Origin: an uncultured Ruminococcus sp.
GTDB lineage: Bacteria > Bacillota > Clostridia > Oscillospirales > Acutalibacteraceae
NCBI GenBank assembly: GCA_964617965.1
Contig: CAZTWO010000001.1
Span: 4,457 to 52,028 of the forward strand
DNA: 47,572 bases
Reading direction: 5' to 3'
Part shown: positions 139 through 41,957 of the stretch, in pieces
Numbering within the stretch: position 1 is the stretch's first letter
Layout: every line of letters starts with the position of its first letter
Program-made: the position numbers and the translations under genes
Notes under the pieces: model-generated
The model's database searches: none
What the model saw: only the letters and a program-made list of their open reading frames with translations
What the model was told of the DNA's origin: nothing

Positions 139-449
139 TTAGCAATTAGCAATTTGCAATGTATGAGGGGTCGGGGACCGGGGACCGGGGGTCGGGGGTG
201 AGGAAGTCCTACGGACTTGATTTATATAGCTTCGCCTCTTGCGAAGCCTAACTGCTCCTTGCTGACTTTTTTGTCAACCGGCAATTAGCAATGAGCAATT
301 TGCACTCCGGGCAAATCAATGTAGAATGCACAACGTAGAATGTAGAATGCATAATGCAGAATGCATAATGTAGGAAGTCCTACGGACTTGATTTATAAGC
401 TTCGCCTCTTGCGAAGCCTAACTGCTCCTTGCTCCTTGCCCCTTGCTCC
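139..449 (+). repeat. Two tandem copies of the modular intergenic element. Copy 1 has an AGCAATT-type array (139-161), a GGGGACC-type array (167-199) and a core (202-263). Copy 2 has an AGCAATT-type array (281-304), a GTAGAAT/GCATAAT array (321-372) and a core with CTCCTTG tail (373-449).
   Basis: Direct reading. The core GGAAGTCC-TAC-GGACTTGATTTATA(T)AGCTTCGC-CTCTT-GCGAAGCCTAACTGCTCCTTGCT occurs twice, almost identical. It contains hairpins at 204-218 and 229-247 (copy 1) and 375-389 (copy 2). Confidence 0.9.
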
Positions 450-563
450 TTTTTTTCTGTCTGAATTTGATATTGAAAAAATAAGCAATCGGTGCTATTA
501 TATTACGGTATATATAAAAGCCGACAAAAAATTAATTGCAGGTCGGCAAACGGAGGTTTTTTA

Positions 564-1046
564 ATGAGTCTTTTTTATGTTCGTGACGGTGAGCCTTATA
601 TCCCCGATGAAATCGGCAGAGAGCTTGCGAAGCTCGCCCACGCGATTGTAAAAACCTGCCGCCTTTCTTTTAAGGTGCAGATGAAAACAACGGCAATCAA
701 CAACGCCATAAAGAGCGGCGACAAGGAGCAGATGCACAATATGCTCCAGAAGGTTCTTGAAAAGTACAGAAAGGTTTATTCCGATTATATGTCCCTCTCG
801 GGTGCCGAGATAGGCGAAGTCGACGACAGCTTTTTCGCAGATAAAGACAATGATTTCTATGTCGGTCAGCTCAGGATTCTGCTTGACCTTGCAAACATCA
901 ACTGCATTGCAGAGTCCCGCATGATGCCCCTGCTCAGTGCCGCATGTGAAAAGACACTTGACAAGAAGTTAAATCAGCTGTATTTCTTCTCGAACCAGGG
1001 TGAAATAAGAGAAGACGATTCCGACACAGACAGCGACGAAGAATAA
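564..1046 (+). CDS. Hypothetical protein (160 aa) with an acidic Asp/Ser/Glu C-terminal tail
   Basis: ORF track 492..1046. The internal ATG at 564 is preceded by GGAGG (553-557). The gene lies 30 nt upstream of alaS on the same strand. No family recognised. Confidence 0.6.
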   Translation: MSLFYVRDGEPYIPDEIGRELAKLAHAIVKTCRLSFKVQMKTTAINNAIKSGDKEQMHNMLQKVLEKYRKVYSDYMSLSGAEIGEVDDSFFADKDNDFYVGQLRILLDLANINCIAESRMMPLLSAACEKTLDKKLNQLYFFSNQGEIREDDSDTDSDEE

Positions 1047-1076
1047 TCAAGACAACACGAAAGAAGATGATATAAC

Positions 1077-3710: not shown

Positions 3711-3714
3711 AGTG

Positions 3715-4018
3715 AGCAAGGAGCAAGGAGCAGTTGGCTTCGCATAAGACAAACAAGCTGAACAAGATGCATTGTTCATTGCTAATTGCAGATTGGCAAA
3801 AAAAGTGAGTAAAGAGCAAGGAGCAGTTGGCTTCGCAATGTTGTTTTACATAACAATTCAGTTTTGCAAAAGGCGAAGCAATATAATTCAAGGCACGCTG
3901 TGCCTTCCGACATTATGCATTATGCATTCTACATTATGCATTCTTCATTGATTGGTCTGAGTTGAAATTGTTAATTGCTAATCAACATTGCTCATTGCTC
4001 ATTGCTAATTGCTAATTG
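3715..4018 (-). repeat. Modular intergenic element in reverse orientation, one partial copy and one complete copy. Contains AGCAAGG arrays (3715-3735, 3815-3827), a reverse core (3815-3908), an ATTATGC/ATTCTAC array (3912-3950) and an ATTGCTA/ATTGCTC array (3967-4018).
   Basis: Direct reading. Hairpin AAGGCAC-GCT-GTGCCTT at 3890-3906. The GCTTCGC(3830-3836)/GCGAAGC(3873-3879) stem encloses a 36-nt loop. The array starts 4 nt after the alaS stop codon. Confidence 0.9.
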
Positions 4019-4037: not shown

Positions 4038-4376
4038 ATGGATTGCGTATTCTGTGCGATTGCAAACGGAGAAATCCCCTCAACAAAGGTTTATGAGGAT
4101 GACACAATACTGGCGTTTAAGGATCTTAACCCTCAGGCACCCGTTCACATTCTCGTTGTACCCAAGGAGCATATCAAATGGGGATATGACATTACACCCG
4201 AAAACAGTGCTGTGGTTGCACACATTTTCGAGATGATTCCCGTTATCGCAAAAGAGCAGGGACTTACAAACGGATACAGAGTAATAAACAACTGCGGCGA
4301 AAGTGCCGGACAGTCCGTTCTGCACCTGCATTTCCACATCCTCGGCGGAAGAGATTTCGGCTGGCCTCCGGGCTAA
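4038..4376 (+). CDS. HIT-family (histidine triad) nucleotide-binding protein
   Basis: 112-aa ORF with the histidine-triad motif HLHFHILGG near the C-terminus and a CxxC at the N-terminus (CVFCAI). An AAGGTGG RBS lies upstream. Confidence 0.9.
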   Translation: MDCVFCAIANGEIPSTKVYEDDTILAFKDLNPQAPVHILVVPKEHIKWGYDITPENSAVVAHIFEMIPVIAKEQGLTNGYRVINNCGESAGQSVLHLHFHILGGRDFGWPPG

Positions 4377-4382
4377 GAAGGA

Positions 4383-4550
4383 ATGATATATCGCTGACGC
4401 GATATGATATATTGCTGACGCAATATGATATACTTGCTTCGCAAGCATGATATAATTTCCGTTCCGTCATATGCTGTTAGGCTTGTATCACCGCACGCAG
4501 TGCGATATCATATCGAAGATATATCACCCGTTCCGACAGGAACGGATATC
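4383..4550. repeat. Array of ATGATATA-type spacers alternating with short hairpins of differing sequence, located in the HIT 3' region
   Basis: Units ATGATATAT-CGCTGACGCG-AT (4383-4403), ATGATATAT-TGCTGACGCA-AT (4404-4424) and ATGATATAC-TTGCTTCGCAA-GC (4425-4446). Further hairpins CGCAC-GCA-GTGCG (4492-4504) and CGTTCC-GACA-GGAACG (4529-4544) are flanked by GATATCAT motifs. Confidence 0.8.
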
Positions 4551-4554
4551 ATTG

Positions 4555-4587: not shown

Positions 4588-4674
4588 TGGTGCCGGTGAC
4601 CGGGCTTGAACCGGTACGATATTGCTATCACGGGATTTTAAGTCCCGGGCGTCTGCCAATTCCGCCACACCGGC
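4588..4674 (-). tRNA. tRNA-Leu, anticodon UAA, type II with long variable arm, CCA encoded
   Basis: The reverse complement folds as a cloverleaf. Acceptor GCCGGTG/CACCGGC, anticodon stem CGGGA/TCCCG with loop CTTAAAA, variable arm GATA-GCAA-TATC, T-arm ACCGG-TTCAAGC-CCGGT, discriminator A plus CCA. Confidence 0.9.
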
Positions 4675-7290: not shown

Positions 7291-8982
7291 TTAGTCTTCT
7301 TTTGCTTCGATGATATAGAGCTTTACGCTGTGCTTTGACACGGCTTCGCTTATTTCACCGAGCGATGTGAAATTGTAATCCTCCCATACATCATAGATAT
7401 TATATCTTTCGCATTTCGGGAGGGATACATATTCTTTCTGTGTCAGCTCGTCCGTGCTGAACGAGATAATCTGCGTGGAGTTGACTTTATTAAACAGACA
7501 TACCGCGATTTTGTTGTCTTTAAGCGGCTTTACAAGCACGTCGGCAACACCGTTTGTCTTTACACGGCGGCACTGAACGCCGAGCGGATCCTGATCGATT
7601 GAAATTGCGGCCTTGTTTGTAACGGTCTTGTATGTCTCGTTTGTATAGTCGGGTGTGCCGTCCTCTTTGACAAACTTGCGTATGTCGTTGCCGAGGATAA
7701 GCGGAGCACTCATCATGCACCAGAGTGAAAAATGCGCTCTGTTCTCATAATCGGTAAGATTTCCGTTGCCAACTTCGAGCATATCCGGGTCATTCCAGTT
7801 GCCGACACCGGCGGAAGCGTATCTGCGAACATTGCACTCATATATGCCGACAATTGACGCCCAGTTTGCCATGATATCGGGAGTTGTTCTCCACAGGTTG
7901 CCTGCGGTCATGCCCCAACGCCAGGGCTGATTGAATCCCCATTCGCAGATTGAGAAACAGATAGGCTTTTCGGGCTTGCCTGTTTTTTCGGCGACAAGAG
8001 CCGTTGCACGCTTAAGCTCCTTGCCCATCGCACGATACTGCTTTGCGGCGGAATCGAAACGAGACGCAACGGGGTTTGTTATTATGAGGCTGTTCTTGCC
8101 TTTTTTGAGGTGAACAAGACCGACAAACGCTCTGCCGTCCGCTGTGGGGCTTCTTGTGCCGGGAACATCAACGGTATAAACATCCGTGCCGTTAACGGTA
8201 ATTTCGGCATATTTACGCATAAGACCGTATTTGCGGATACCGAGAGTCAGGTTATAGTCGCCCTCTTCCGGAATTTCAACATCGCAGAATACAGCCGAGC
8301 CGCCTGCGAAATCGAGACCTCTTATAAATTCGTGCGGTTCGGGGAGCTTTTCATCGGTGATGATTTCGGCATTTCCGCGAAGCTCCGCCATGGCCGCCGG
8401 GACAAATATGCTGTCGTTTTCACCGGGTACGGCGAACATAAGCTTTGTAATTTCGGGTGCTGTTGTGGGAATTGCGACATTGTGGCAGAAATCATACTTA
8501 AAGTATTCAATTCCCCACTCGGCAAACGTCTCGGCATCAGTGCGTTCATGATAAAGAGTACCGGGCAGGTCCTCGCATGTGAGCGTGCCGTTTGAATTGT
8601 ATATACCGAGCTTAAGTCCCAAGTCATTAACCTTTTTGACAAGTGACGGAATACCCGATGGGAATGTCGCGGGGTCGGCACTGAGTCTGCCGTTTTCGTC
8701 ACGCACGCTTGCCATCCAGCAGTCGTCAATATTTACATACTGATAACCGAGCTCGGCAAGACCGCTTTTTTTCATCGCAACGGCAATTTCTTCTATAAGC
8801 TTTTCGTCAATATGATTGCGGAACAAGTTCCAGCTCGCCCAGCCCATAGGGGGTGTGAGTGCGACGCCGTTTGAAAATCTGTCGTGACCGTCAACGTGAA
8901 TGTTGTTTGCGGACATGACCTTTTTGGCAATGCACACAGGGCACAGATGAAGCTTTTTGAGTTCTTTTTTTATATCGGGCAT
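7291..8982 (-). CDS. Glycoside hydrolase family 27 alpha-galactosidase-like enzyme with a large internal insertion
   Basis: 563-aa ORF with GH27 motifs PPMGWASWN, YVNIDDCW, KYDFC and CEWG. GGAGG RBS 6 nt from the ATG. The gene lies 15 nt upstream of the GH95 gene on the same strand. Confidence 0.88.
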   Translation of the reverse strand: MPDIKKELKKLHLCPVCIAKKVMSANNIHVDGHDRFSNGVALTPPMGWASWNLFRNHIDEKLIEEIAVAMKKSGLAELGYQYVNIDDCWMASVRDENGRLSADPATFPSGIPSLVKKVNDLGLKLGIYNSNGTLTCEDLPGTLYHERTDAETFAEWGIEYFKYDFCHNVAIPTTAPEITKLMFAVPGENDSIFVPAAMAELRGNAEIITDEKLPEPHEFIRGLDFAGGSAVFCDVEIPEEGDYNLTLGIRKYGLMRKYAEITVNGTDVYTVDVPGTRSPTADGRAFVGLVHLKKGKNSLIITNPVASRFDSAAKQYRAMGKELKRATALVAEKTGKPEKPICFSICEWGFNQPWRWGMTAGNLWRTTPDIMANWASIVGIYECNVRRYASAGVGNWNDPDMLEVGNGNLTDYENRAHFSLWCMMSAPLILGNDIRKFVKEDGTPDYTNETYKTVTNKAAISIDQDPLGVQCRRVKTNGVADVLVKPLKDNKIAVCLFNKVNSTQIISFSTDELTQKEYVSLPKCERYNIYDVWEDYNFTSLGEISEAVSKHSVKLYIIEAKED

Positions 8983-9080
8983 AGTTAATCCTCCAATCCA
9001 TACTGATATAATACAATCATTTTAGTATAAAATCAATATAATAAATTTATTTTTTGTCGGGAATAAGAAGCAAGTGGCCG

Positions 9081-9129
9081 GGGGTCAGGGGCCAGGGGCC
9101 AGGGGCCAGGGGCCAGGGGCCAGGGGCCA
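9081..9129 (+). repeat. Perfect heptamer array, GGGGTCA followed by six GGGGCCA
   Basis: Direct reading: seven consecutive 7-bp units, i.e. seven GGGG tracts separated by 3-nt loops. Confidence 0.95.
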
Positions 9130-9141
9130 GTGACTGCGGAA

Positions 9142-9569
9142 GTCCTGCGGACTTGGATTATATAGCTCTGCAGTCTTTTACCCTGATTTCCTGTAAAAGT
9201 ATCACAATTCGCGTAGCTTTATAATCCAAAACGCAAAGCGTTTTCCTTAATTATGCATTATGCATTCTGCATTCTACATTGTTTTGTCCTGCGGACTTGG
9301 ATTATATAGCTCTACAGTCTTTTACCCTGATTTCCTGTAAAAGTATCACAATTCGCGTAGCTTTATAAATCAAAACGCAAAGCGTTTTCCTTAATTATGC
9401 ATTATGCATGCTGCATTCCACATTGTTTTGTCCTGCGGACTTGGATTATATAGCTCTGCAGTCTTTTACCCTGATTTCCTGTAAAAGTATCACAATTCGC
9501 GTAGCTTTATAATCCAAAACGCAAAGCGTTTTCCTTAATTATGCATTATGCATTCTGCATTCTACATTG
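9142..9569. repeat. Three tandem copies of a 144-bp unit (9142-9285, 9286-9429, 9430-9569). Each unit is built from a forward half-core, a CTTTTAC/GTAAAAG hairpin, a TCACAATTCGCG module, a reverse half-core and an ATTATGC/ATTCTGC heptamer array.
   Basis: Direct reading. The period of 144 was measured from GTCCTGCGG at 9142, 9286 and 9430. Copies differ by a few substitutions (for example CTCTGCAG vs CTCTACAG, and ATAATCCAAAACG vs ATAAATCAAAACG). Confidence 0.93.
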
Positions 9570-11794: not shown

Positions 11795-11876
11795 TTAATT
11801 CTTAATAAGAACAATATTGAAACATCCCCTTTTCGGTTGTATTATATTCAGAGAAATTTTTTCGGGAGTGACAGAT

Positions 11877-13382
11877 ATGAAAAACACATTTAAAAAATCT
11901 GTGTGCTGCCTTTTAGCGGCTGTGTCGCTGATGCTGACGGTATTGCCCGCCTTTGCGGAAGAAACCGGAACGACAGCCGAAGAAACGGCAACGATAGCGG
12001 AAGAGACGGCAACTGCGGCGGAAGAGACCGGGACAACGGCAGAAGAGACCGAAACGGACACGGATACGACAACGGCAAAAGAGACAACGACCGAAGCTCT
12101 CACCGAGCATATTTTTGCCGATGCGGACGAAAACGGCGATGTAAACGTAACGGACGCAAGAATGATTCTGCGTTTTGCCGTAAAGTTAGACAAATACGAC
12201 GAGAAGAAAATCGAATACTACGATCTTGACAACAACAATTCGGTTGATGTCATGGATGCGAGAATTGCCCTCAGAATTGCGGTAAAGCTCCCTGCGGACT
12301 ATGTCGAACCCGAAACAGAGGAAGAAACCGAGGAAGAGACCACAACCGTTCCCGTGACCACAACCGAACCGACCACAAAGAAGCCCGAACCGACTACAAA
12401 AAAGCCCGAGCCGACCACAAAGAAGCCGGAACCGACAACACAGCCGACTCCCGTCAAGAAAAATCCCACAAAAGCGGAATATGCAAAATCGATGGGCAAC
12501 AGCGTGTGGACAGGTCACATTGATAATACGATGAAGTCATTATGCAACACCATAGGCACAAGATATGTCGGTTCAAACAACTGCTTCACGGCTAAAAACT
12601 GGATAAAGAAACAGCTTTCAAGCTACGGATACAGCAATGTTACGGAACAATATGTAAGCGTAACAAGCAAAGGCTATACTTCATATAATCTGATAGTAAA
12701 AATTCCGACAGCGAAAAAGAATCCGAAAATAATCACATTCTCGGCACACTATGACTGCAGCTCGCAGAGTGTCGGCGCGGTGGATAACGCCTCGGGTGTC
12801 GCGGCAATTCTGGAACTTGCGAGAATAGCAAAGAGCAAAAATATGGACTTCGGCGTGGAGCTTCGTTTTGCGTTCTTCACGGGTGAGGAAAACGGCTACT
12901 ACGGCGCGTATAAATACCGTTCTTCACTGTCGCAGGACGAAAAGAACCGCCACATAGTTTTCTTTAATATCGACATGGCGGCACCGTCAACGGCCGATAA
13001 AGAGAGCTATCTGTGTGTAAGCACCGAGCCTGTCACACAGAACTATCGGTGGAGAAAGGCGTACAACAACGCCGGCAGCAACGCCGTAAGAGAAGCACAT
13101 AACATTATGGGCAGCTGCGGTGAAAAGGCATTTTATTCGCCGATTGCGGCAGGCATGCACGACATAGTCCCGTTCAGAAAAGCGGGACTTCCCGCAATTA
13201 CGCTGTCATGGAGGCGTGTAAGCTCTTCGGGTAAGGGCAACGATTACAGCCTTACATCCCCGTCGGTTATTCACACCTATAAAGACAACCTGAATTATGT
13301 AAACTATAACGCACTGTACAAGACGGTAAGACTTGCCGCCGCATCAATGGGCGTGCTTACATACGGGTATGTCTATTCATAA
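11877..13382 (+). CDS. Secreted M28-family metallopeptidase with an N-terminal dockerin module and Thr/Glu/Pro-rich repeat linkers
   Basis: Signal peptide MKNTFKKSVCCLLAAVSLMLTVLPAFA (ATG 11877, GGGAG RBS). Two dockerin-type Ca-binding repeats (DENGDVNVTDARMILRFAV, DLDNNNSVDVMDARIALRIAV). M28 motifs SAHYD, GAVDNASG and FFTGEE.GYYGA. Confidence 0.85.
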   Translation: MKNTFKKSVCCLLAAVSLMLTVLPAFAEETGTTAEETATIAEETATAAEETGTTAEETETDTDTTTAKETTTEALTEHIFADADENGDVNVTDARMILRFAVKLDKYDEKKIEYYDLDNNNSVDVMDARIALRIAVKLPADYVEPETEEETEEETTTVPVTTTEPTTKKPEPTTKKPEPTTKKPEPTTQPTPVKKNPTKAEYAKSMGNSVWTGHIDNTMKSLCNTIGTRYVGSNNCFTAKNWIKKQLSSYGYSNVTEQYVSVTSKGYTSYNLIVKIPTAKKNPKIITFSAHYDCSSQSVGAVDNASGVAAILELARIAKSKNMDFGVELRFAFFTGEENGYYGAYKYRSSLSQDEKNRHIVFFNIDMAAPSTADKESYLCVSTEPVTQNYRWRKAYNNAGSNAVREAHNIMGSCGEKAFYSPIAAGMHDIVPFRKAGLPAITLSWRRVSSSGKGNDYSLTSPSVIHTYKDNLNYVNYNALYKTVRLAAASMGVLTYGYVYS

Positions 13383-13464
13383 ATACTGATACTTGATAAT
13401 TCTCCGCTTGCATGATATACTGTAACATATATTTTCACGAGGAAATCAGAGCTATACTTTTAAT

Positions 13465-13614
13465 GCATAATGTAGAATGCATAATGCATAATATCGGAAG
13501 TCCTGCGGACTTGGATTTATAAGCTGCGCAGACATTAAAGCAAATCAACACAGACAACATTTTTGCTTTGCGAAGCTTCACTGCTCCTTACTCCCTGCTC
13601 CTTGCTAACTGCTC
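13465..13614 (+). repeat. Modular intergenic element, forward. GCATAAT/GTAGAAT array (13465-13492), then a core with a 35-nt insert in the second stem and a CTCCTT-rich tail (13496-13614).
   Basis: Direct reading. Hairpin AAGTCC-TGC-GGACTT at 13498-13512. The tail reads CACTGCTCCTTACTCCCTGCTCCTTGCTAACTGCTC. Confidence 0.9.
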
Positions 13615-14908: not shown

Positions 14909-15039
14909 GGGGTCAGGGACCGGGAACCGGGGGCCGGGGACTGATGAAGTCACCGGGTGATCGGGAGTTGCATAACAATTAGCAATTAGCAGTTAGCAAT
15001 TAGCAATATCGGAAGTCCTGCGGACTTGGATTTGTAAGG
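14909..15039 (+). repeat. Modular intergenic element, forward with a truncated core. GGGGTCA/GGGACC-type array (14909-14941), AGCAATT/AGCAGTT array (14975-15007) and a half-core (15010-15039).
   Basis: Direct reading. The array starts on the nucleotide after the glyA TAA. Hairpin AAGTCC-TGC-GGACTT at 15013-15027. Confidence 0.9.
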
Positions 15040-15071: not shown

Positions 15072-16718
15072 ATGAATAAGGAAAAGAGAAGTTTGCTTTT
15101 GGACAATGCGAAAAATCATATTGACAAACAAAGGCTTATGTACTGCTTTGTGCTTACGTTTGTGATAGGTTTAATCTGTCATGCGTATGCGTATCTCAAT
15201 TATCAGCCGAGCCATGACTCACTGTATGAGGCGGTTTCAAATTCCGATTATTGGGAAATGAAAATTGAGTACGGCAGATACATAAAGCCTTTGTGTGATA
15301 TGGTGCTCGGAAAGTTTGCGAGCTTTCCGTGGATAAACGGCCTTATTGCGCTTTTCTGGCTGTCTTTGTCGGCATATATTGTCACGGATATGTTCAGAAT
15401 CGAAAGACGGCGTGATATAGGTCTGTTCTGCGGAATACTTACAACCAACATTACGGTTATAAGCATGTCGGCGACGTATTTTCAGGATCTGAGCGCAAAT
15501 ATGTTTGCACTGTTTCTGTCGCTTGTCGGCACGCATATATGGTTCGACATGACAAACAGGTACGATGACCTCGGCGTCAAAAAGAAGATTCTGCTCTCGC
15601 TTGCGGCCGCCATTTGTGTATTTGTCTCAATGGGAATTTATCAGGCGTTTGTAAGCGTGCTTATTACACTTGTGCTGATAATTTCTATAATGAGACTGTT
15701 AAACGAAGAGGCCGAATGCAAAAAGGTATGGACTTACGACTTCTGGGGTGCAGGCTCGGTTATTGTCGGAAGTGTGCTGTATTACGGTGTATACAAGCTT
15801 GTTTTGCTTGTGACCGGAATTGAAATGAACACCTCTAACTATAACAGTCTTGGAAAGCTGTTTTCAAGTGAGCTGTCGGTACCGGAGCTCCTGTCCGAGA
15901 CTTTTTCATATGTCTTCAAATACATATTTACGGCACCCTATTACACCTATCCGACATATGTAACTTCCGCGATAAGCATAGCTATATTTGCCGCAATGGT
16001 TATCTGCTTTATAATAGCTGTCAGAAATCTGAGAAAGAACAAAGCGAAGAAAAGCACAAGAATATCGGTTGTATTTTTCTTTCTGATGATTCCGTTTGCG
16101 ATGAATATAGTAAATCTGCTTGGCGGCGTAACGCACGCCGTTATGATTTATTCATTCTGGTTTACTTATATTATAGCGATACTGTTTACAAAGCATTTTA
16201 CGAAAATAAAAAGCAAAATGTTCTTTGAAAGAGTAACCGCACTGCTTTTGTGCTGTCTGATTTTCGCAAATATACAGGTTGCAAATGCCGCGTATGTAAA
16301 GAAAACAACGGAACAACAGGCGACACTTTCGGTCATGACAAGAGTGCTTGACAGAATTGAATCCATTGACGGCTATGAGCCCGGCGTGACACCCGTAGCG
16401 TTTATGGGAACCCCTAACAAATATCTTACGGAATATGAGGAATTTGAAGATCAGATTTTCATAACAGGTGTAGGATATAAGTCGGTGATAACATATCCGA
16501 ATATTTACAAAAAGTATTTCAGCATGATTCTTAAGGTTGATATAAATGTCGTGAAGAACAAAGAGGCAGTTGAGATTTATGATAAAAACAATCTTGAAAA
16601 TATGCCGGCGTTCCCCGATAATGACAGCATTAAGGTGATTGACGGAACTGTTGTTGTAAAGTTTTCGGATAGGAAGGATAAGTCGTCGACGGAGAAAAAT
16701 GACGAGGCAAACAGTTAG
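15072..16718 (+). CDS. Polytopic integral membrane protein, possibly of the GtrII/Glucos_trans_II glucosyltransferase-domain type
   Basis: 548-aa ORF with AGGGAG RBS. It has many hydrophobic segments followed by a soluble C-terminal domain. The family assignment is from general resemblance only. Confidence 0.7.
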   Translation: MNKEKRSLLLDNAKNHIDKQRLMYCFVLTFVIGLICHAYAYLNYQPSHDSLYEAVSNSDYWEMKIEYGRYIKPLCDMVLGKFASFPWINGLIALFWLSLSAYIVTDMFRIERRRDIGLFCGILTTNITVISMSATYFQDLSANMFALFLSLVGTHIWFDMTNRYDDLGVKKKILLSLAAAICVFVSMGIYQAFVSVLITLVLIISIMRLLNEEAECKKVWTYDFWGAGSVIVGSVLYYGVYKLVLLVTGIEMNTSNYNSLGKLFSSELSVPELLSETFSYVFKYIFTAPYYTYPTYVTSAISIAIFAAMVICFIIAVRNLRKNKAKKSTRISVVFFFLMIPFAMNIVNLLGGVTHAVMIYSFWFTYIIAILFTKHFTKIKSKMFFERVTALLLCCLIFANIQVANAAYVKKTTEQQATLSVMTRVLDRIESIDGYEPGVTPVAFMGTPNKYLTEYEEFEDQIFITGVGYKSVITYPNIYKKYFSMILKVDINVVKNKEAVEIYDKNNLENMPAFPDNDSIKVIDGTVVVKFSDRKDKSSTEKNDEANS

Positions 16719-16962
16719 CAAGGAGCAAGGAGCAAGGAGCAAGGAGCAGTTATCGGTGAACAGTTACCTGTGACCGAAGGATTATCTTTATTGACACATA
16801 AATGCCACTTTTACTTACTTTTTCTATATAACAAAAAAAGGACAGCCTATGCAGATAAGCTGTCCTTTAGTTTTCTCTTTTTGCAGCCGCAACGCTTTAT
16901 AATCCAAAACGCCATGCGTTTTCCTTATCCTCCGGCCACTGGATACTGACCACTGAATATGG
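16717..16962 (-). repeat. Modular intergenic element, reverse. AGCAAGG x4.5 array (16717-16749) overlapping the upstream stop codon, a long central insert, a reverse half-core (16883-16924) and a CCACTGG/ATACTGA array (16935-16962).
   Basis: Direct reading. Hairpin AAAACGC-CAT-GCGTTTT at 16906-16922. The central insert carries the terminator at 16837-16868. Confidence 0.85.
16837..16868. terminator. Bidirectional terminator between the membrane-protein gene (+) and yajC (-)
   Basis: Stem AAAGGACAGC (16837-16846) pairs with GCTGTCCTTT (16859-16868) around a 12-nt loop. An A-run lies upstream and T-rich sequence downstream. Confidence 0.65.
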
Positions 16963-33691: not shown

Positions 33692-33770
33692 TTTTCTTTC
33701 CTCCTGAGAGCTGAATGCTCGAATATGATTTTTTTGTCAAAATTTTAGTCGGTGAAAACAGCGGACAAAT

Positions 33771-34084
33771 TAAGAATTAAGAATGCATAATGCATAATGT
33801 CGGAAGACACTGCGTGTCTTGAATTTATAGAAGCTTCGCGGGGCTGAACTTTTGTGTAAGCCGGTAATTTCTTTCGACATATTTATGACAATGCAGAATG
33901 TAGAATGCAGAAGCAGAATGAAGAATGTAGAATGTAGAATGCATAATGCATAATGTCGGAAGACACTTCGTGTCTTGGATTATAGAAGCTTCGCAAGGCT
34001 AAATTTTATACAAACCGGTAGTTTATTTCGATATATCTGCTATAATGCAGAATGCAGAATGTAGAATGTCACAATTCGCGTGTG
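33771..34084 (+). repeat. Two tandem copies (period 156 bp) of the modular element, forward. Heptamer arrays (33771-33798, 33891-33955, 34045-34068), cores (33802-33890, 33958-34044) and a TCACAATTCGCG module (34069-34081).
   Basis: Direct reading. Hairpins AAGACAC-TGC-GTGTCTT (33804-33820) and AAGACAC-TTC-GTGTCTT (33960-33976). The period was measured from TCGGAAGACAC at 33800 and 33956. Confidence 0.9.
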
Positions 34085-34879: not shown

Positions 34880-35011
34880 ATTAACTCATTCGCCCCCATT
34901 CTCGTATATGATATATTAGTTGCGGCGAAAAAGCAAGAACAAAAGCGACAAAACGCAAAAAAGGGTTGATTTTTATTTTTATGTGTGTTAACATTGTCTG
35001 CGTTATAAGTC

Positions 35012-35260
35012 AAACGCCGAGAACGGAAGAGTAGGCCTGAAATTTTCGTCAGAGAGTATGTGCCGTCGGCTGAAAGCACATTCGTTAAATTTTTTGCTGA
35101 AGTTCACCCGGGAGCGGTGCCGCCGAAAAAAGAGTAAGCGGCAACGGCCGATCACCGTTAAAGGATTGCCGAGAGTCCGTCCGTTATCAAAAAAAGACGG
35201 AAACAAGGGTGGTACCGCGGAGCTGATTCTTCGTCCCTTTTTGTGGGATGAAGTTTTTTT
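35012..35260 (+). promoter_or_regulatory. T-box riboswitch leader with a Phe (UUC) specifier, controlling pheST
   Basis: Stem I elements GCCGAGAACGGAAGAGTA (K-turn/AGTA), AGAGA bulge (about 35050) and distal CTGAAAGC. Specifier GAAG-TTC-A (TTC at 35103-35105). T-box AACAAGGGTGGTACCGCG (35202-35219). Terminator CTTCGTCCC/GGGATGAAG plus T7 (35229-35260). Confidence 0.9.
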
Positions 35261-36355: not shown

Positions 36356-38743
36356 ATGGATCTTTCAAGAAGATGGCTGCTTGATTATGTTGATGTCGCC
36401 GATATAGACGACAAGACCTTTGCGGATGAAATGACACTGTCCGGTTCAAAGGTTGAATGCTACGGCAAAGAGGGCGAGGAGCTCAAAAATATTGTCGTGG
36501 GCAAAATTCTCTCACTCGAAAAACACCCCGACTCCGACCATATGTGGATTTGCATGGTTGATGTCGGCGCAGATGCTCCCCTTCAGATAGTCACGGGCGC
36601 ACAGAATCTGTCTGTCGGCGATTATGTTCCGACCGCACTTGACAATTCGGTTGTTCACGGCGGCAAAGAGATAAAGTCCGGCAAATTAAGGGGCATTGAA
36701 AGCTGCGGCATGCTGTGCTCATTAGGCGAACTCGGACTTACAAAGCACGACTTCCCCTATGCGATAGAGGACGGCATTTTCGTACTCGGCGACGACTGCG
36801 ACAGAACTCCCGGCAAATGCATCAAAGAAGCAATCGGCTTAAACGATACGGTTACCGAATTTGAAATTACACCCAACCGCCCCGACTGTCTGTCGGTTGT
36901 GGGTCTCGCACGTGAAGCCGCCGTTACATTCGGCAGAAAGCTTACCGAACCCAAGACGACATACAAAACCGTCGGCGGTGACGTTAAGGAGCTTTTGCAC
37001 TCCGTTACAATCGAAGCGGCAGACAAGTGCTTCCGTTATGCCGGCGCGGTTGTAAAGAATGTTCGTGTAAAGCCCTCGCCCAAGTGGATAAGAGAGAGAC
37101 TCAGAGCGTGCGGCGTTCGTCCCATAAACAACATTGTCGATATCACGAACTTTGTAATGCTTGAATACGGTCAGCCCATGCACGCCTTCGACTTAAGATA
37201 TCTTGACGGCGGCAAGGTTATCGTCAGAAACGCAAAAGAGGGCGAAAGCATAACAACACTTGACGGTGTCGAAAGAAAGCTCTCCCCTGAAATGCTCGTT
37301 ATAGCGGACGAAAACAAGCCCGTAGCCGTTGCAGGTGTAATGGGCGGCGAATATTCGGGCATCATGGACGACACAAACACAATAGTATTTGAATCGGCAT
37401 GCTTCTATGGCCCGTCAATCAGAAAGACGGCAAAGAAGCTCGGTATGCGTACAGAAGCATCGGGCAGATTCGAGAAGGGTCTTGACCCCGACGGATGCCT
37501 TAAGTGCCTTGACAGAGCACTCTCACTTGTTGAAGAGCTTGACGCGGGCGATATAGTTGAGGGCGTTGTGGATATGTATCCCAATCCCAAGAAGCAGACT
37601 GTGCTTGACTTCTGCCCCGACTGGGTAAACAACTTCATCGGCATTAACGTAAGCGCAGACGAGCAGAAGAAAATTCTGACCGACCTTGAATTTGAGGTTA
37701 AGGACGGCAAGATATATGTTCCGTCATTCAGAAGCGACGTTGAGCATAAGGCCGATATATCCGAAGAAATTGCCAGATTCTACGGCTTTGACAAAATAGC
37801 GGTTCGTGACCTTCAGGGTGAAGCGGACGGCGGACTTAACGACTTCCAGAAGTTTGAGAAGCTTATTGTCAATAAGTGCATTTCACTCGGTCTGTCCGAG
37901 ATTGTCACATATTCGTTCATAAGCCCCAAGGCTTACGACAAAATAAATCTTGCCGCGGATTCACCGCTGAGAAAGTGCGTTGTCATATCTAACCCCTTAG
38001 GCGAAGACACGGGCGTTATGCGTACATCGATGATTCCGAGCATGATGGACACACTCTCAAGAAACTACAACAACAGAAACCTGTCCGCATATCTTTTCGA
38101 AAACGGCAAGGTATATATTCCGAAGGGTGTCGATGAACTGCCCGACGAAAACAGAACAATCGCTGTCGGTATGTACGGAAACGGCGCTGACTTCTTTGAG
38201 CTCAAGGGCAAAACAGAAGCACTGTTCGACTGTGCGGGCATTGCGGAATACGATGTTGAACCGGTAACGGACGACCCGACATTCCACCCCGGCAGAACAG
38301 CCGAATTTACCGTTAACGGCGAGCGTATCGCAATACTCGGTGAAATTCATCCGGATGTAGCCGAAAACTATTCGATAGACACAAAGGTTTATGTGGCAAG
38401 TGTTTCGCTTGACAAGCTCTATAAGCTTTCGAACATCAAGAAGACATATAAGCCCAGCCCACGCTTCCCCGCTCTTACAAGAGACCTGGCTGTAGTGTGT
38501 GACAGAATTACACCCGTACTTAAGCTCGAAAAGGTTATTGCAAAGGCTGTCGGTGAGACACTCGAGCATATTTCGCTGTTTGACGTATATCAGGGCGAAC
38601 AGATCGAAAAGGGCAAAAAGAGTGTTGCGTTCAGCCTGCGTCTGAGAGCCGCCAACCGCACAATGACAGACGACGAAGCGGATGCTGCGATGAAGAGAGC
38701 TGTTGAGGCGCTTGAGAATATAGGGGCAAGCCTGAGAAAATAA
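36356..38743 (+). CDS. pheT: Phenylalanine--tRNA ligase beta subunit
   Basis: 795-aa ORF with an N-terminal tRNA-binding domain, then B3/4, B5 and FDX-ACB domains. It lies 14 nt downstream of pheS. Confidence 0.97.
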   Translation: MDLSRRWLLDYVDVADIDDKTFADEMTLSGSKVECYGKEGEELKNIVVGKILSLEKHPDSDHMWICMVDVGADAPLQIVTGAQNLSVGDYVPTALDNSVVHGGKEIKSGKLRGIESCGMLCSLGELGLTKHDFPYAIEDGIFVLGDDCDRTPGKCIKEAIGLNDTVTEFEITPNRPDCLSVVGLAREAAVTFGRKLTEPKTTYKTVGGDVKELLHSVTIEAADKCFRYAGAVVKNVRVKPSPKWIRERLRACGVRPINNIVDITNFVMLEYGQPMHAFDLRYLDGGKVIVRNAKEGESITTLDGVERKLSPEMLVIADENKPVAVAGVMGGEYSGIMDDTNTIVFESACFYGPSIRKTAKKLGMRTEASGRFEKGLDPDGCLKCLDRALSLVEELDAGDIVEGVVDMYPNPKKQTVLDFCPDWVNNFIGINVSADEQKKILTDLEFEVKDGKIYVPSFRSDVEHKADISEEIARFYGFDKIAVRDLQGEADGGLNDFQKFEKLIVNKCISLGLSEIVTYSFISPKAYDKINLAADSPLRKCVVISNPLGEDTGVMRTSMIPSMMDTLSRNYNNRNLSAYLFENGKVYIPKGVDELPDENRTIAVGMYGNGADFFELKGKTEALFDCAGIAEYDVEPVTDDPTFHPGRTAEFTVNGERIAILGEIHPDVAENYSIDTKVYVASVSLDKLYKLSNIKKTYKPSPRFPALTRDLAVVCDRITPVLKLEKVIAKAVGETLEHISLFDVYQGEQIEKGKKSVAFSLRLRAANRTMTDDEADAAMKRAVEALENIGASLRK

Positions 38744-38745
38744 TT

Positions 38746-38889
38746 AGAAATTAGCAATTAGCAGTTAGCAATGAGATCGAAAAAATGCATAATGTAGAAT
38801 GCATAATGCAGAATGTCGGAAGTCCTGCGGACTTGATTTATATGGCTTCGCGAAATGCCACACTGTTGTCTGCTCCGTAATTTTGCTCC
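38746..38889 (+). repeat. Modular element, forward. AGAAATT/AGCAATT/AGCAGTT array (38746-38773), GCATAAT/GTAGAAT/GCAGAAT array (38787-38814) and a core (38818-38889).
   Basis: Direct reading. Hairpin AAGTCC-TGC-GGACTT at 38820-38834. The array phase runs into the pheT TAA stop (38741-38743). Confidence 0.9.
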
Positions 38890-38972: not shown

Positions 38973-38986
38973 GTGTGATAATTGTG

Positions 38987-39070
38987 CTTAGCTTTTGCGA
39001 AGCTTTATAAATCCAAGGCACACAGTGCCTTCCTTAGCCCCCGACCCCCGGCCCCTGACTCCCGGCCCCT
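38987..39070 (-). repeat. Modular element, reverse. Core (38987-39033), then a C-rich heptamer array (39034-39070) that is the complement of the GGGGNCN type.
   Basis: Direct reading. Hairpin AAGGCAC-ACA-GTGCCTT at 39015-39031. The GCTTAGC-TTTT-GCGAAGC stem has one mismatch. Confidence 0.9.
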
Positions 39071-39443: not shown

Positions 39444-39444
39444 A

Positions 39445-39556
39445 AAGCTTCTTTGATGGTTTGCAGAACAGAAAAACCGGTATTTTGCGAAGCTTTATAA
39501 TCCAAGACACAAAGTGTCTTCCGACATTATGCATTCTTAATTATGCATTCTCAATT
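39445..39556 (-). repeat. Modular element, reverse. Core (39445-39522) and an ATTATGC/ATTCTTA array (39526-39556).
   Basis: Direct reading. Hairpin AAGACAC-AAA-GTGTCTT at 39504-39520. The AAGCTTC/GAAGCTT stem encloses a loop of about 37 nt. Confidence 0.9.
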
Positions 39557-39575
39557 TTAAAAGGACGGTATTACA

Positions 39576-39866
39576 ATGGCAAAGAAAGACGGCCTTCTTA
39601 TGTACAAGGGCTATCCCCTTGTAAGAAACGGCAAAACAATTTATTACGGCAACAGCTATGACCCGTTTGTGGTTATGATTCAGATAGCATCGACAAAGCA
39701 GTCAGGCGACCTTGAAATCGCCGACAAGGTTCTTATTCAGCTGCTGAACACCGACCCCGATGTTCGCCCCAGAGAACGCATTGTCAAAAAGAGCGAGAAA
39801 AAGGGTCTCTATGCCGCAATGGACATAGCAGAGGTCTGGCTCACAAGAGCGAACGCAGGCAAATAA
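39576..39866 (+). CDS. Hypothetical protein (96 aa)
   Basis: ORF track. ATG with an AAAGGA RBS. No family recognised. Confidence 0.6.
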   Translation: MAKKDGLLMYKGYPLVRNGKTIYYGNSYDPFVVMIQIASTKQSGDLEIADKVLIQLLNTDPDVRPRERIVKKSEKKGLYAAMDIAEVWLTRANAGK

Positions 39867-39933
39867 TCTGATTAACTCAGCCGTCGGTTTTCTTTTCGGA
39901 TTTCGGCGGCTGTTACTTTAGGAGGAAGATAAA

Positions 39934-40959
39934 ATGAATAAGGCAGAACTTGTTTTCAAGGCAATAGATGTTTTCGGCGAAGCTCCGCAGAATGCCGTTC
40001 ACTACCCCGGCATAGTAAGAGTACAGAACATTCCCTATGCCGACACATCCGAAAAATTCACAATCGGTGACCTTTATTTCAAGCGTACTATTCTTAATGA
40101 CGGCAAGCTGCACCCCGTGCTTCTGTATATTCACGGCGGCGGATTTATAAAGGGCGACAAGGATTACAGAGTTACAAACTCCGAGTTTTATGCATATCAC
40201 GGCTATTTTGTCTATAATATAGACTACCGTATGCCTCCCGAAGTGCCGCTTACCGACAACTTCGCAGACATTATAAACGCCATAAACTTTATTCCGGAGC
40301 TTGCAAAAACATACAACATTGACCCGAAAAAGGTTGTTGTATCCGGTGACTCATCGGGTGCGTTCCAGACAGCCATGCTTGCCGCAAGCGCGTTTGATGA
40401 CGAATTAAGACAGGCGCTGTCCCTCCCCGAGGTTACATGCAAGCCCGCCGCTCTCGCCCTTATGTGCGGCATATACGACCTTGAACAGCTCTTGCAGGGG
40501 CCGCGTCTTTTCGGCGTTATCCCCGAGACTGCAAGCCTTATGATGGGCTTCAAGGTTAAAAACGATATGTCGAACATAAACGACTATGAATATATAAGAT
40601 ACATCTGCCCCGTACACCTTGTTAACCCCGACTGGTGCCCGACGTTCATCACATGGGCAGAAGAAGATATCATCTGCGTGGGTCAGGGTCCGTCAATGGC
40701 AAAAGCACTCGAAGACAACAACATAAGAATGGAAAAATTCTATGTTAAGGGTCTTATCCGCAACCATTGCTATCATCTTATGATAAATCTCCCCTCTTCA
40801 AAAGAATGCATGAACAGATGCGTAAAGTTCCTCAATGAGGTTCTTGACAATGACGACCCCGAAAAGGATGAAATCGTCATCAACGAAAAAATGAACAATG
40901 ATGAGCCCGAAGAGGAAGCCGCCGAAGAAGAGACAAAAACCGAGGGCGGCGAAGAATAA
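39934..40959 (+). CDS. Alpha/beta hydrolase, esterase/lipase of the HGGG (hormone-sensitive-lipase-like) type, with an acidic C-terminal tail
   Basis: Oxyanion motif HGGGF (YIHGGGFIKGD) and nucleophile elbow GDSSGA. AGGAGG RBS. Confidence 0.85.
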   Translation: MNKAELVFKAIDVFGEAPQNAVHYPGIVRVQNIPYADTSEKFTIGDLYFKRTILNDGKLHPVLLYIHGGGFIKGDKDYRVTNSEFYAYHGYFVYNIDYRMPPEVPLTDNFADIINAINFIPELAKTYNIDPKKVVVSGDSSGAFQTAMLAASAFDDELRQALSLPEVTCKPAALALMCGIYDLEQLLQGPRLFGVIPETASLMMGFKVKNDMSNINDYEYIRYICPVHLVNPDWCPTFITWAEEDIICVGQGPSMAKALEDNNIRMEKFYVKGLIRNHCYHLMINLPSSKECMNRCVKFLNEVLDNDDPEKDEIVINEKMNNDEPEEEAAEEETKTEGGEE

Positions 40960-40999
40960 TTCGGCATCCTTATCCCCTGCCGCAAAAGAGGTGTTTTCT

Positions 41000-41842
41000 A
41001 TGAAAAGAATAGTTACAATTCAGGATATTTCATGCGTCGGCAAATGCTCACTTACAGTTGCACTGCCCGTCATATCCGCATGCGGAATAGAGACTGCGGT
41101 TATACCGACTGCCGTTCTGTCAACACATACCGCTTTTAAGGGCTTTACATTCCATGATCTTACGAATGAAATAAAGCCCATAACGGAGCACTGGAAAAAA
41201 GAAAACTTCAGATTTGACGCAATATACACGGGTTATCTCGGTTCGTTTGAGCAGGTCAAGCTCATGAGTGACTTTTTCGACGACTTCAAAACCGATGACA
41301 ACATTATTTTCGTTGACCCCGTAATGGCGGATAACGGCGTGCTGTACCCCGGATTTACGCAGGAATTTGCCGACGAAATGGCAAAGCTCTGCTCCAAGGC
41401 GGATGTAATAGTCCCAAATCTTACCGAGGCGTGCTATATGCTTCATAAGGAATATGTGGCCGAAGGATACACAAGAGAATATATCACAGATATCCTTAAG
41501 GGGCTGTCAGAGCTCGGTGCGAAAAATGCCGTGCTTACCGGTGTCAGCTTCCAAAAAGACAGAGTCGGCGTTATGGGATATATAAGCGAGGAAGACAGAT
41601 TTTTTGAGTACTACACAGCAAGAATCGACGCAAGCTTTCACGGTACGGGCGATGTTTTTGCGAGTGCGTGCGTGGGTGCGATGGTCAGAGGTCTGACACT
41701 TGAAAACTCACTTAAGACAGCGGCAAACTACACCGTTGACTCGATTATAAAGACAATGTCCGAGCCGAACCATGTGACGTATGGGGTAAATTTTGAGCAG
41801 TCGATACCGATGCTGCTTGGGGAGCTTGAGAAGAACAAATAA
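41000..41842 (+). CDS. pdxK: Pyridoxal/pyridoxamine kinase (ribokinase superfamily)
   Basis: The internal ATG of ORF 40898..41842 gives MKRIVTIQDISCVGKCSLTVALPVISA, the typical N-terminus of Firmicute pyridoxamine kinases. C-terminal GTGD motif. AAGAGG RBS. Confidence 0.85.
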   Translation: MKRIVTIQDISCVGKCSLTVALPVISACGIETAVIPTAVLSTHTAFKGFTFHDLTNEIKPITEHWKKENFRFDAIYTGYLGSFEQVKLMSDFFDDFKTDDNIIFVDPVMADNGVLYPGFTQEFADEMAKLCSKADVIVPNLTEACYMLHKEYVAEGYTREYITDILKGLSELGAKNAVLTGVSFQKDRVGVMGYISEEDRFFEYYTARIDASFHGTGDVFASACVGAMVRGLTLENSLKTAANYTVDSIIKTMSEPNHVTYGVNFEQSIPMLLGELEKNK

Positions 41843-41846
41843 GCTG

Positions 41847-41957
41847 TCAGGGGTCAGGGGCCGGGGGCCGGGGGCCGTTATCCAGTGGCCAGTATCCAGT
41901 GGCCAGTATCCAGTGGCTGAGGAAGACACTGCGTGTCTTGGATTTATATAGCTTCGC
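41847..41957 (+). repeat. Modular element, forward with a truncated core. TCAGGGG/CCGGGGG array (41847-41877), CCAGTGG/CCAGTAT x5 array (41882-41916) and a half-core (41921-41957).
   Basis: Direct reading. Hairpin AAGACAC-TGC-GTGTCTT at 41923-41939. The element starts 4 nt after the pdxK stop. Confidence 0.9.

Follow-up and report, generated by a model that had tools for sequence, protein, structure and literature searches.

The window analysed here, the whole stretch of 47,572 nt of contig CAZTWO010000001.1, derives from a member of the Oscillospirales/Acutalibacteraceae lineage and encodes ordinary housekeeping functions: alaS, hinT, a tRNA-Leu, two glycoside hydrolases, topB, a peptidase, glyA, a GtrII-like gene, yajC, T-box-pheS-pheT, ireB and pdxK. 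Between these genes lie elements that are apparently palindromes of the repetitive extragenic palindrome (REP)/bacterial interspersed mosaic element (BIME) kind, fused to heptamer arrays like the short tandemly repeated repetitive (STRR) sequences. The initial annotation had described 11 intergenic regions with 7-bp arrays beside a conserved core, and this is borne out. Tandem Repeats Finder reports a period-7 array in each region, all in a strict 7-bp register, and none of three or more units elsewhere in the window. A covariance model built on 28 gap-free cores recovers 17 cores in the window (E from 4e-16 to 0.03), or 18 per 47.6 kb once a truncated core at 15011 is counted. A core pattern without any pairing requirement matches seven times, with 0.2 matches expected from shuffles. 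No period-7 array of at least three units is more than ~150 nt away from a core or GCTTCGC remnant. The family was estimated to cover about 5% of the window, and the listed intervals total 2396 bp (5.0%).

Architecture of the elements in the window

Direct reading of the regions reveals a conserved core, GG-AAG-stem-loop-stem'-CTT-G(G)ATT(T)ATA(W)A-GCTTCGC, which can also be summarized as GGAAG-hairpin-CTTGGATTATAWAGCTTCGC. It is 34–38 nt long with a stem of 6–7 bp. The GGAAG-hairpin core, the second stem GCTTCGC...GCGAAGC and the insert of 5–130 nt that had been proposed are all present. The repeating unit is a polar half-element, in which one or more heptamer arrays on the 5' side are followed by a perfect 6–7-bp hairpin, GG-AAR-stem(3-4)-loop(3-4)-stem'-YTT, and then by a non-palindromic tail, GGATTATAWA-GCTTCGC. 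Half-elements occur singly, head-to-head, or in tandem chains, the last being evident from truncated cores that continue directly into the next array. There are four main stem classes, AAG-TCC, AAG-ACAC, AAG-GCAC and AAA-ACGC (below, TCC, ACAC, GCAC and ACGC). A core length that is strictly a multiple of 7 was considered and rejected, since the 7-bp-stem form (36 + 6 nt) alone conforms to it and the TCC class departs from it. The elements of the window are as follows (rc, reverse complement; E values are those of the covariance model).

137–263, plus strand: half-element 1 (Tandem Repeats Finder, sequence, E 3e-06), with AATTAGC (137–160) and GGGGNCN (167–199) arrays, a core with a TCC-class hairpin (202–235), a short second stem GCTTCGC-CTCTT-GCGAAGC (229–247; single-stranded DNA fold, z −4.5) and a mirrored-arm remnant, CTAACTG-CTCCTTG.
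281–451, plus strand: half-element 2, with GCAATKA (281–299) and AATGYAK (318–372) arrays, a core (373–405; E 0.0035), a second stem and a mirrored (CTCCTTG)4 array (423–451).
3714–3836, plus strand: two hairpin-less half-elements, (GAGCAAG)n-CAGTTG-GCTTCGC, at 3714–3745 and 3807–3836, the pair beginning 4 nt past the alaS stop codon.
3873–4018, minus strand: half-element with a GCAC-class core (3873–3908; E 8.6e-15) and rc-AATGYAK (3910–3949) and rc-AATTAGC (3966–4018) arrays, finishing 20 nt ahead of the hinT start codon.
9076–9569, both strands: cluster between the divergent alpha-galactosidase and topB genes, with a (GGGGCCA)7-8 array (9076–9130) and then three tandem 144-bp units (9142–9569). 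Each unit is a head-to-head doublet of a plus-strand TCC-class core, a 39-nt spacer and a minus-strand ACGC-class core, together with rc-AATGYAK arrays. Plus-strand cores lie at 9138, with partial copies near 9293 and 9437; minus-strand cores lie at 9211–9246, 9355–9390 and 9499–9534.
13461–13614, plus strand: AATGYAK array (13461–13492), core (13496–13529; E 0.031), 39-nt insert, GCGAAGC (~13569) and mirrored CTCCTTR array (13580–13614), upstream of glyA.
14909–15039, plus strand: GGGGNCN array (14909–14941) starting immediately past the glyA stop codon, AATTAGC array (14976–15007), and a truncated core, hairpin plus GGATTTGTAAGG, at 15011–15039; the module order is reversed.
16717–16748, plus strand: (AGCAAGG)4.6 array that overlaps the GtrII-like gene's stop codon and represents the arm of a half-element lacking its hairpin.
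16889–16962, minus strand: ACGC-class core (16889–16924; E 9.9e-12) and rc-CCAGTRK units (16925–16962), between convergent genes and past a terminator at 16837–16868.
33768–34084, plus strand, antisense to the flanking minus-strand genes: two tandem half-elements, the first with AATTAAG and AATGCAT arrays and an ACAC-class core (33802–33839), the second with an AATGYAK array (33890–33955) and a core (33958–33994), followed by a further AATGCAG array (34044–34068).
38742–38889, plus strand: AATTAGC array (38742–38776), which shares the pheT stop codon, AATGYAK array (38784–38815) and TCC-class core (38818–38851), in the pheT 3' region upstream of the terminator.
38987–39070, minus strand: GCAC-class core (38997–39033) and minus-strand (GGGGNCN)n (39037–39070), between the pheT terminator and the ireB promoter.
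39445–39556, minus strand: ACAC-class core (39487–39522; E 4.4e-16) and rc-AATGYAK/AATTAAG arrays (39526–39556), between ireB and the next gene.
41846–41957, plus strand: GGGGNCN (41846–41877) and CCAGTRK (41879–41917) arrays and an ACAC-class core (41921–41957), between the pdxK stop codon and a terminator at 41994–42026.

One covarying hairpin is found throughout, as expected of the single modular intergenic family first proposed. The fixed module order that was claimed for it fails. AATTAGC, GGGG and core follow one another at 139–200, as against GGGG, AATTAGC and core at 14909–15010, and both orders are also seen in relatives, including loci L037, L044 and L076. Only AATGYAK arrays consistently adjoin the core. 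GCGAAGC with (CTCCTTG)n had been regarded as a separate 3' module; it is instead a reversed second half-element, (CAAGGAG)n...GCTTCGC, from which the hairpin part has often been deleted. In L076, a CTCCTTG array directly abuts the hairpin side of a reverse core. The original list of array types was incomplete, relatives adding AATTAAC, ACTCCAC/GTGGAGT and AATCGGC.

Almost all cores (148 of 153) are intergenic. Elements start 0–5 nt past stop codons, at times sharing the stop, and end 20–100 nt before start codons; some lie between a stop codon and a terminator, and others between a terminator and a promoter. Cores are also found between divergent and between convergent genes. Between co-directional genes, 27 are sense and 39 antisense, a bias that is not significant. 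Promoter and terminator scans gave weak, composition-driven matches only. A promoter role was rejected: the reverse core has TATAAT and AATGYAK arrays give CATAAT, but there is no consistent −35 sequence at 16–18 nt. A terminator role was rejected since the hairpin is short and weak and the real terminators sit downstream. The perfect Watson–Crick palindromes, and the intergenic copies without bias in transcription direction, favour DNA-level repeats rather than an RNA gene.

Hairpin pairing, array polarity and doublets

Stem pairing was assessed in reference genomes with the no-pairing pattern. The matches listed come mostly from two metagenome-assembled genomes (MAGs), CAVFUV01 and CAVFPQ01 ('Acutalibacteraceae bacterium'), the former 93–96% identical to the window. 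Among these matches, 82 of 88 family cores have perfectly complementary stems, and none of seven chance matches in other phyla pairs. In an alignment of 131 distinct copies, 98.8% of cells are standard pairs, compared with 88.6 ± 0.5% in shuffles (0 of 500 reach the observed value) and 17–49% in slid controls. This alignment was fitted to the covariance model and leans towards structure; the no-pairing pattern test agrees with it. Compensatory double changes are present at three of seven pairs (104 cells). The pairs comprise 875 Watson–Crick, 1 G:T and 8 A:C, and the near absence of wobble pairs (G:T in 1 of 887 cells) is unlike the usual selected RNA helix. Rare intermediates join the stem classes through single base-pair steps. 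Loops are hypervariable, with at least 15 different triplets, though the stems are perfect; one master loop, TGC, prevails in the TCC and ACAC classes, and the loops of the GCAC and ACGC classes are scattered.

Array orientation is fixed with respect to the hairpin. Within the 70 nt upstream of 136 cores, forward and reverse-complement heptamers were counted at ratios of 155:1 (AATGYAK), 79:1 (GGGGNCN), 164:9 (AATTARS), 91:4 (CCAGTRK) and 20:0 (CAAGGAG). A 7-periodic run is present upstream in 100 of the 136 cores and beyond the tail in 32. When written in one register, the heptamers form a mutational continuum (AATGCAT, AATTAAC, AATTAGC, AAGGAGC, AGTGGCC, AGGGGCC), and mixed CCAGGGG/CCAGTGA arrays exist. 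This suggests that the arms diversified from a single ancestral 5' flank of the core. On the other side of the hairpin, the non-palindromic tail has been kept in more than 150 copies and the adjacent spacer has drifted.

Twenty of 39 adjacent head-to-head core pairs are spaced 73–76 nt apart, and this discrete spacing defines a doublet of ~110 bp, the commonest head-to-head form. Its spacer is 38–41 nt long and poorly conserved, with a degenerate consensus only. The two hairpins of a doublet are never of the same stem class (0 of 20; ~0.002 by chance), and the ACGC class is mostly found in doublets. As single-stranded DNA the doublet folds into a hairpin, a long central stem and a second hairpin (z = −3.7 and −5.9). 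Spacers themselves mostly lack self-complementarity (mean z −0.4; structured in 3–4 of 15). The two cores constitute imperfect inverted ends of ~36 bp, that is, terminal inverted repeats as in miniature inverted-repeat transposable elements. There is no target-site duplication; the flanks extend the inverted symmetry (..AATGTC/GGAAG...CTTCC/GACATT..) and are not direct repeats. The idea that the spacer is captured target DNA was ruled out, as the 5' parts of spacers share a degenerate AGACTTAAARC consensus. Single cores lie more often on the locally G-rich strand, a crude proxy for replication direction, than on the C-rich strand (41 versus 21; p 0.015).

Distribution and variation between strains

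The covariance model gives 157 matches in 444 kb, on ~60 contigs of the two related MAGs, and none in 56 kb of control loci. The family is thus genome-wide and not confined to this locus, as had been predicted. Core density is roughly 0.2–0.4 per kb, or ~0.2 per kb after removal of one seeding match per locus, which by extrapolation gives several hundred copies per genome. Two host species share all four stem classes at different frequencies (ACAC, 30% versus 8%). One orthologous spacer is occupied in both species with entirely different content, and its flanking proteins are 83–97% identical. A common relative with the same gene order (PheT, 87% amino-acid identity; 75–79% nucleotide identity) served as a syntenic outgroup, the nearest one sampled. 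The covariance model finds no cores in 31.7 kb of its syntenic DNA, and a 22-kb syntenic locus has neither cores nor heptamer arrays. Outgroup spacers are empty and compact at six orthologous sites (for example, 179 versus 452 bp, 39 versus 133 bp and 109 versus 328 bp).

Rfam searches of the window and 13 related loci returned no match to the element at the gathering threshold or at E<=1, and only T-box, tRNA and Gut-1 hits. Phage and plasmid records gave no blastn match. In IMG/VR, 21 pattern matches represent one unrelated, non-palindromic phage coding sequence, and a nested 87-nt module described below is absent there too. JGI metagenomes contain 59 single pattern matches, of which three are palindromic, all from one soil coding sequence. 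No description of the repeat family was found in the literature consulted, which agrees with the initial view that it is undescribed in Firmicutes. It is apparently an undescribed, well-delimited family and, among the genome matches listed, belongs to a narrow Oscillospirales clade.

Twelve syntenic strains were compared around ireB and three around topB. Loci L071 and L074, from independent samples, have coding DNA 100% identical to the window and carry identical elements, so that an assembly artefact, which the initial annotation had allowed for, is excluded. Near-identical contigs differ by one or two whole heptamers: the GGGGCCA array is two units shorter in L165/L166, TTAATTC is present four times in L072 and three times in L073, AATGCAK differs by one unit between L077 and L079, and GCCGGGG is one unit longer in L076. 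The copy number of the 144-bp unit also varies between same-strain contigs. Short-read contigs of the window strain (L163, L164, L167) end at 9076–9569, and one assembly has one 144-bp copy, not three. The elements fragment MAGs here, and their copy number in assemblies is not to be trusted.

At 2–5% coding divergence, larger changes are seen. A 35-bp CCAGTRK module (41879–41913) is absent in L042, and the arrays at the pdxK site are replaced by AATGYAK in L072–L078; these alternatives are explained by deletions between GCTG(A) microhomologies. In L076, a 200-bp segment is duplicated in tandem. The orthologous core at the 39445–39556 site changes stem class (ACAC, GCAC, TCC), with unique DNA a few nucleotides away nearly unchanged. 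Elsewhere among the strains, the 38987–39070 site carries different arrays or a different stem class, and in L042/L072/L073 the region from the pheT stop codon to the terminator is replaced by a different element. Within the TTAATTN array of L072/L073 there is a hairpin-only unit of ~21 nt. The occupancy of sites persists to 88–91% nucleotide identity (L077/79/80) and into the sister species.

The doublet at 9138–9246 is inverted in L008, a ~95% identical strain. There the doublet is flanked by inverted G-rich and C-rich arrays. This could be an invertible switch, or the product of independent events. Same-strain contigs on the topB side all have one orientation, those on the alpha-galactosidase side end at the repeat, and no invertase was seen.

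Two subterminal hairpins characterize the 87-nt nested module, CAGMCAAAAATCATCCGGTGAATGATTTTTGGCGTAGCGACTAATGAGGACCGGCGRCAGCGGTCCGACAAYCMAAGCYAA, which lacks a target duplication. Its nine distinct copies are at L012:3747–3833, L075:3529–3616, L045, L003, L038, L044, L009, L027 and L065, and in five of these it is located exactly at the junction of array and core, between ..TC and G-GAAG... It lies within the pheT-site element in L075/L078 and also in L012; the window lacks it at the same site. The module looks like a miniature element of IS200/IS605 type.

Another repeat family, GC-rich and at least 250 nt long with several long hairpins, GCCGGGCTTTGCCGTACCGGCGGGCTGAGCCGCCCGTCGGGGCACCCGG...CCGGACAGCCGGGTACC...TTCATTTGTTAAGCCGCAGGGGCTGCGGCTGAACAAATTC, is joined directly to cores via GCTTCGC-AAGAGGTGGGCTTTT units. 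Copies lie at L011:78, L024:7554(−), L031:7679 and 7296(−), L032:171(−), L051:2998(−) and L061:4603, with partial copies in L015 and L046. It has no Rfam match, its gene neighbours vary by copy, and it is absent from the window. In L031, a Gut-1-like match (7581–7654) adjoins it.

Other features of the window were noted. A Gut-1 RNA (RF01706; 60.3 bits, E 1.3e-09) lies on the minus strand at 4480–4554, directly downstream of tRNA-Leu(UAA) (4588–4674); beside it is a 21-bp × 3.4 tandem array (4383–4454), which itself yields a weak opposite-strand Gut-1 match (4373–4436; E 0.011). Tandem repeats of 21 bp (seven codons) at 11955–12064 and 12364–12440 are within a 521-aa M28-type peptidase gene (11817–13382), and probably encode a low-complexity linker unrelated to the intergenic heptamers. 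Upstream of pheS-pheT lies a canonical T-box leader (35010–35241; 114.7 bits), and its spacer is free of repeat elements, unlike most of the neighbouring ones. The ~390 bp at 42050–42440 include an 83-aa open reading frame (ORF) on the minus strand (42050–42301) with a faint zinc-ribbon match; this segment is absent from L042. Gene content just past 42440 is strain-variable (a DUF6273 protein versus a GH3 enzyme).

Relation to known repeats and proposed mode of spread

Hairpin repeats are well studied in Proteobacteria (REP, BIME and REPIN, the REP doublet forming a hairpin) and in streptococci (BOX and RUP); to our knowledge, dispersed hairpin repeats are essentially uncharted in the uncultured Clostridia that dominate the gut. 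REPs are imperfect palindromes of 20–40 nt; BIMEs alternate two different REP types, and a conserved 5' GTAG/GTGG tetranucleotide beside the palindrome is typical of REPs. A REPIN combines two REPs of one group, and its spacer is itself hairpin-forming (PMC3337134). In behaviour and grammar, the present family is closest to these elements (PMC3337134, PMC3116915; Gilson, Bachellier; Bertels & Rainey). The resemblance lies in short extragenic palindromes in hundreds of copies, arranged singly, as tandem mosaics, or as inverted doublets with discrete spacing and copy-specific spacer sequence, at vertically inherited, long-lived sites without target duplication; the 3 × 144-bp cluster of the window resembles a BIME-2 array. 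Unlike REPs, the family has an unrelated sequence, no 5' GTAG, a Gram-positive clostridial host and polar 7-bp microsatellite arms on each unit. Unlike REPINs, different stem classes pair, spacers are mostly unstructured, and no REP-associated tyrosine transposase (RAYT) was found in the ~0.6 Mb of clade DNA searched. The initially suggested likeness to STRR-type heptamers combined with REP/BIME-like hairpins is supported.

The small dispersed repeats SDR4-6 of Nostoc, hairpin units of 21–27 nt, are reportedly proposed to move via RNA (Elhai et al. 2008, Genome Res). They are similar in being tiny dispersed hairpins with compensatory changes and nested insertions, often set in heptamer arrays; they differ in that the present family has a long conserved tail and no sequence relationship to them. 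Heptamer simple sequence repeats (SSRs) include Nostoc/STRR GGGGA(T/C)T and Xanthomonas GGGAATC (PMC4692102), and TAACTGA in Beggiatoaceae, cyanobacteria and Bacteroidetes (PMC4679880). They share with our arrays the strict 7-nt intergenic units, abutment to the upstream ORF, several types per spacer, hypervariability between relatives, and close relatives with shorter, repeat-free spacers (PMC4692102, PMC4679880). A 7-nt polymerase-slippage step has been proposed for them (Mrazek 2007, cited in PMC4692102, PMC4679880). The units themselves are alike (GGGGNCN and GGGGACT; CTAACTGC and TAACTGA). The SSRs were described in other phyla, and without a conserved hairpin core or fixed polarity, whereas here the arrays are the arms of a defined dispersed element.

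The left and right ends of IS200/IS605-derived elements are not inverted copies of each other, and these elements have no heptamer arms. Their miniature forms, the palindrome-associated transposable elements (PATEs; PMC6006769), have subterminal hairpins, a fixed short insertion neighbour and no target duplication, features that match the 87-nt nested module best and may extend to the core. No TnpA, TnpB or IS200/IS605 copy was found in the clade DNA searched. Pneumococcal BOX, with RUP and SPRITE (PMC3049150), is likewise a modular Firmicute intergenic repeat, highly base-paired and often clustered or nested, with conserved end modules flanking a tandem array of strain-variable copy number. 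Its boxB unit is ~45 bp as against 7 bp here. BOX has terminal inverted repeats, target-site duplications and a link to an insertion sequence (IS) transposase (PMC3049150), and the latter two were not seen in the present family.

On balance, we favour the reading that this is a lineage-specific, non-coding, REP/BIME/REPIN-like intergenic repeat family, whose arms are microsatellites and whose cores would be copied by an enzyme acting in trans. A DNA-level repeat that has proliferated in one lineage, as opposed to an RNA gene or a regulatory site of ancient origin, is supported by the palindromes, transcription independence, packed intergenic sites, subfamily structure, fixed-spacing doublets, junction-specific nested insertion, long-lived sites and absence from the outgroup. 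The core would be recognized and maintained as DNA, as a hairpin in single strands or a palindrome in duplex, and a protein acting in trans would copy half-elements or doublets into new intergenic sites. The leading candidate would be a single-copy HUH/Y1 enzyme (RAYT or IS200-like), the most economical guess given the hairpin ends, lack of target duplication, fixed insertion junction and 41:21 strand bias. The arms, as microsatellites descended from the core's own 5' flank, would lengthen or shorten by 7-nt replication slippage and be pruned by microhomology deletion. Expansion may continue until a stop codon, terminator, promoter or ribosome-binding site is reached, with selection trimming only intrusions, which would make the elements chiefly selfish or neutral fillers of spacers. 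They may also affect mRNA 3' ends, via the G-quadruplex-prone GGGGNCN, the Shine–Dalgarno (SD)-like CAAGGAG, and the weak terminator-like hairpin with its U-rich tail.

Several observations weigh against this explanation. The enzyme searches spanned ~0.6 Mb of clade DNA, less than one third of any one genome. Within that scope, no transposase, RAYT, reverse transcriptase or recombinase is present among the window ORFs (30 ORFs; Pfam and NCBIfam) and no such gene among ORFs between distant inverted cores; ORF clustering revealed no multi-copy ORF and no IS in 465 kb of incomplete genomes, and tblastn with an approximate IS200 TnpA query gave nothing credible over 595 kb. There is no clean filled-versus-empty polymorphism of a whole half-element within a species, and slippage, deletion, duplication and recombination alone could explain most inter-strain differences. 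The GC-skew strand bias of cores is confounded by gene orientation. The REP-typical 5' GTAG is absent, the conserved 5' flank being GG before the AAR-stem; doublets always combine different stem classes; and their spacers are mostly not self-complementary. On these three counts the family is not a member of the REPINs, though REPIN-like in its working. Finally, the conserved tail and spacer length hint at a possible sequence-specific binding function.

A related view, which we consider rather unlikely, is that the hairpin core is the missing actor behind bacterial heptamer repeats, a new and very small DNA element that is protein-mobilized or self-priming. Activity at the 5' edge of the core would generate the polar 7-nt arrays, for example if a polymerase or HUH enzyme with a 7-nt footprint slipped by that length during repeated nicking and resynthesis. 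We know of no accepted explanation for the similar units (GGGGACT, TAACTGA) and patchy phylogeny of heptamer arrays. If this view were true, analogous systems would have produced the STRR/TAACTGA-type arrays of cyanobacteria, Beggiatoaceae, Xanthomonas and Bacteroidetes.

It is also rather improbable that the elements have no dedicated mobility and are old palindromes and microsatellites reshuffled by host processes alone, namely slippage, quasi-palindrome template switching (which would keep stems perfect), microhomology deletion, tandem duplication and ectopic recombination. All inter-strain changes observed are of these kinds, occupancy is stable to ~10% divergence and across two species, the stem classes are joined by single base-pair steps, and the searched clade DNA held no transposase. 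Such processes cannot, however, put the same 36-nt core with its non-palindromic tail at more than 150 unrelated loci. The compact, empty outgroup spacers and the fixed-junction insertion of the 87-nt module also argue against them, and the master and variant loops, with species-specific stem-class frequencies, indicate amplification.

The compensatory changes in the hairpin, and the several copies that are transcribed by virtue of lying between stop codon and terminator, could point to a structured RNA family. The cores would then be cis-regulatory or small-RNA modules (3'-UTR stabilizers, attenuators or sponges) whose hairpin is under selection as RNA, with base pairing of the CU-rich or SD-like arrays to ribosome-binding sites or anti-SD sequence. 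The hairpin followed by GGAUUUAUAU was flagged as a weak terminator-like site, and CAAGGAG and CTCCTT arrays mimic SD and anti-SD. We regard this as unlikely in view of the lack of orientation bias, the copies found in terminator–promoter intervals and in spacers of divergent and of convergent genes, the near absence of G:U pairs, the lack of an Rfam match, and an element without a convincing promoter or terminator of its own. Moreover, the outgroup shares the genes and not the elements, and one site differs completely in content between strains.

The ribbon–helix–helix omega repressor binds heptads on pSM19035, and CspB is reported to bind one protein per heptamer (cited in PMC4679880). Both cases bring to mind protein-binding arrays with a host function, in which a DNA-binding or nucleoid protein specific to the lineage would occupy the core and the heptads would be bound cooperatively in a 7-bp register. 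The conservation of the tail next to a drifted spacer, the constant spacer length of 38–41 nt without conserved sequence or structure, and the strict 7-bp register are consistent with this. It is nevertheless a distinctly unlikely explanation: at least six unrelated heptamer sequences are interchangeable, array type and number vary between close strains at the same gene, the neighbours are unrelated housekeeping genes, and dispersal to hundreds of loci in one lineage, with absence from the outgroup, is left unexplained.

A retro-type mechanism, in which very small hairpin units would invade heptamer arrays by way of RNA, as reportedly proposed for the Nostoc SDR elements, appears highly improbable. 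It would account for the hairpin-only unit in L072/L073 and the nested insertions at a fixed junction, and the architecture parallels hairpins embedded in heptamer arrays. Local duplication explains the hairpin-only unit equally well, however; the DNA examined yielded neither a reverse transcriptase nor a group II intron, and the arrays have a polarity with respect to the core and do not run on through it. An assembly or binning artefact, which the contig breaks at the largest cluster and the varying 144-bp copy number might suggest, is effectively refuted by identical elements across independent samples and assemblers (L071, L074, L165), by the presence of the family in ENA, JGI, NCBI and Logan records, and by arrays shorter than a sequencing read.

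One family fills ~5% of a housekeeping region and breaks short-read assemblies at its largest cluster (9076–9569). Intergenic DNA is made to evolve faster than any other part of the genome, an advantage for strain typing, and G-quadruplex-prone, SD-like and hairpin sequences are put against the stop codons and ribosome-binding sites of essential genes. The family physically joins REP-like palindromes and 7-nt microsatellites, so far described separately. Its main interest is that the fixed polarity of hairpin and array provides a handle on the unexplained abundance and spread of bacterial 7-nt repeats. The heptamer question is thereby made experimentally approachable, since a search can be aimed at an enzyme that the element-bearing clade has and the element-free outgroup lacks.

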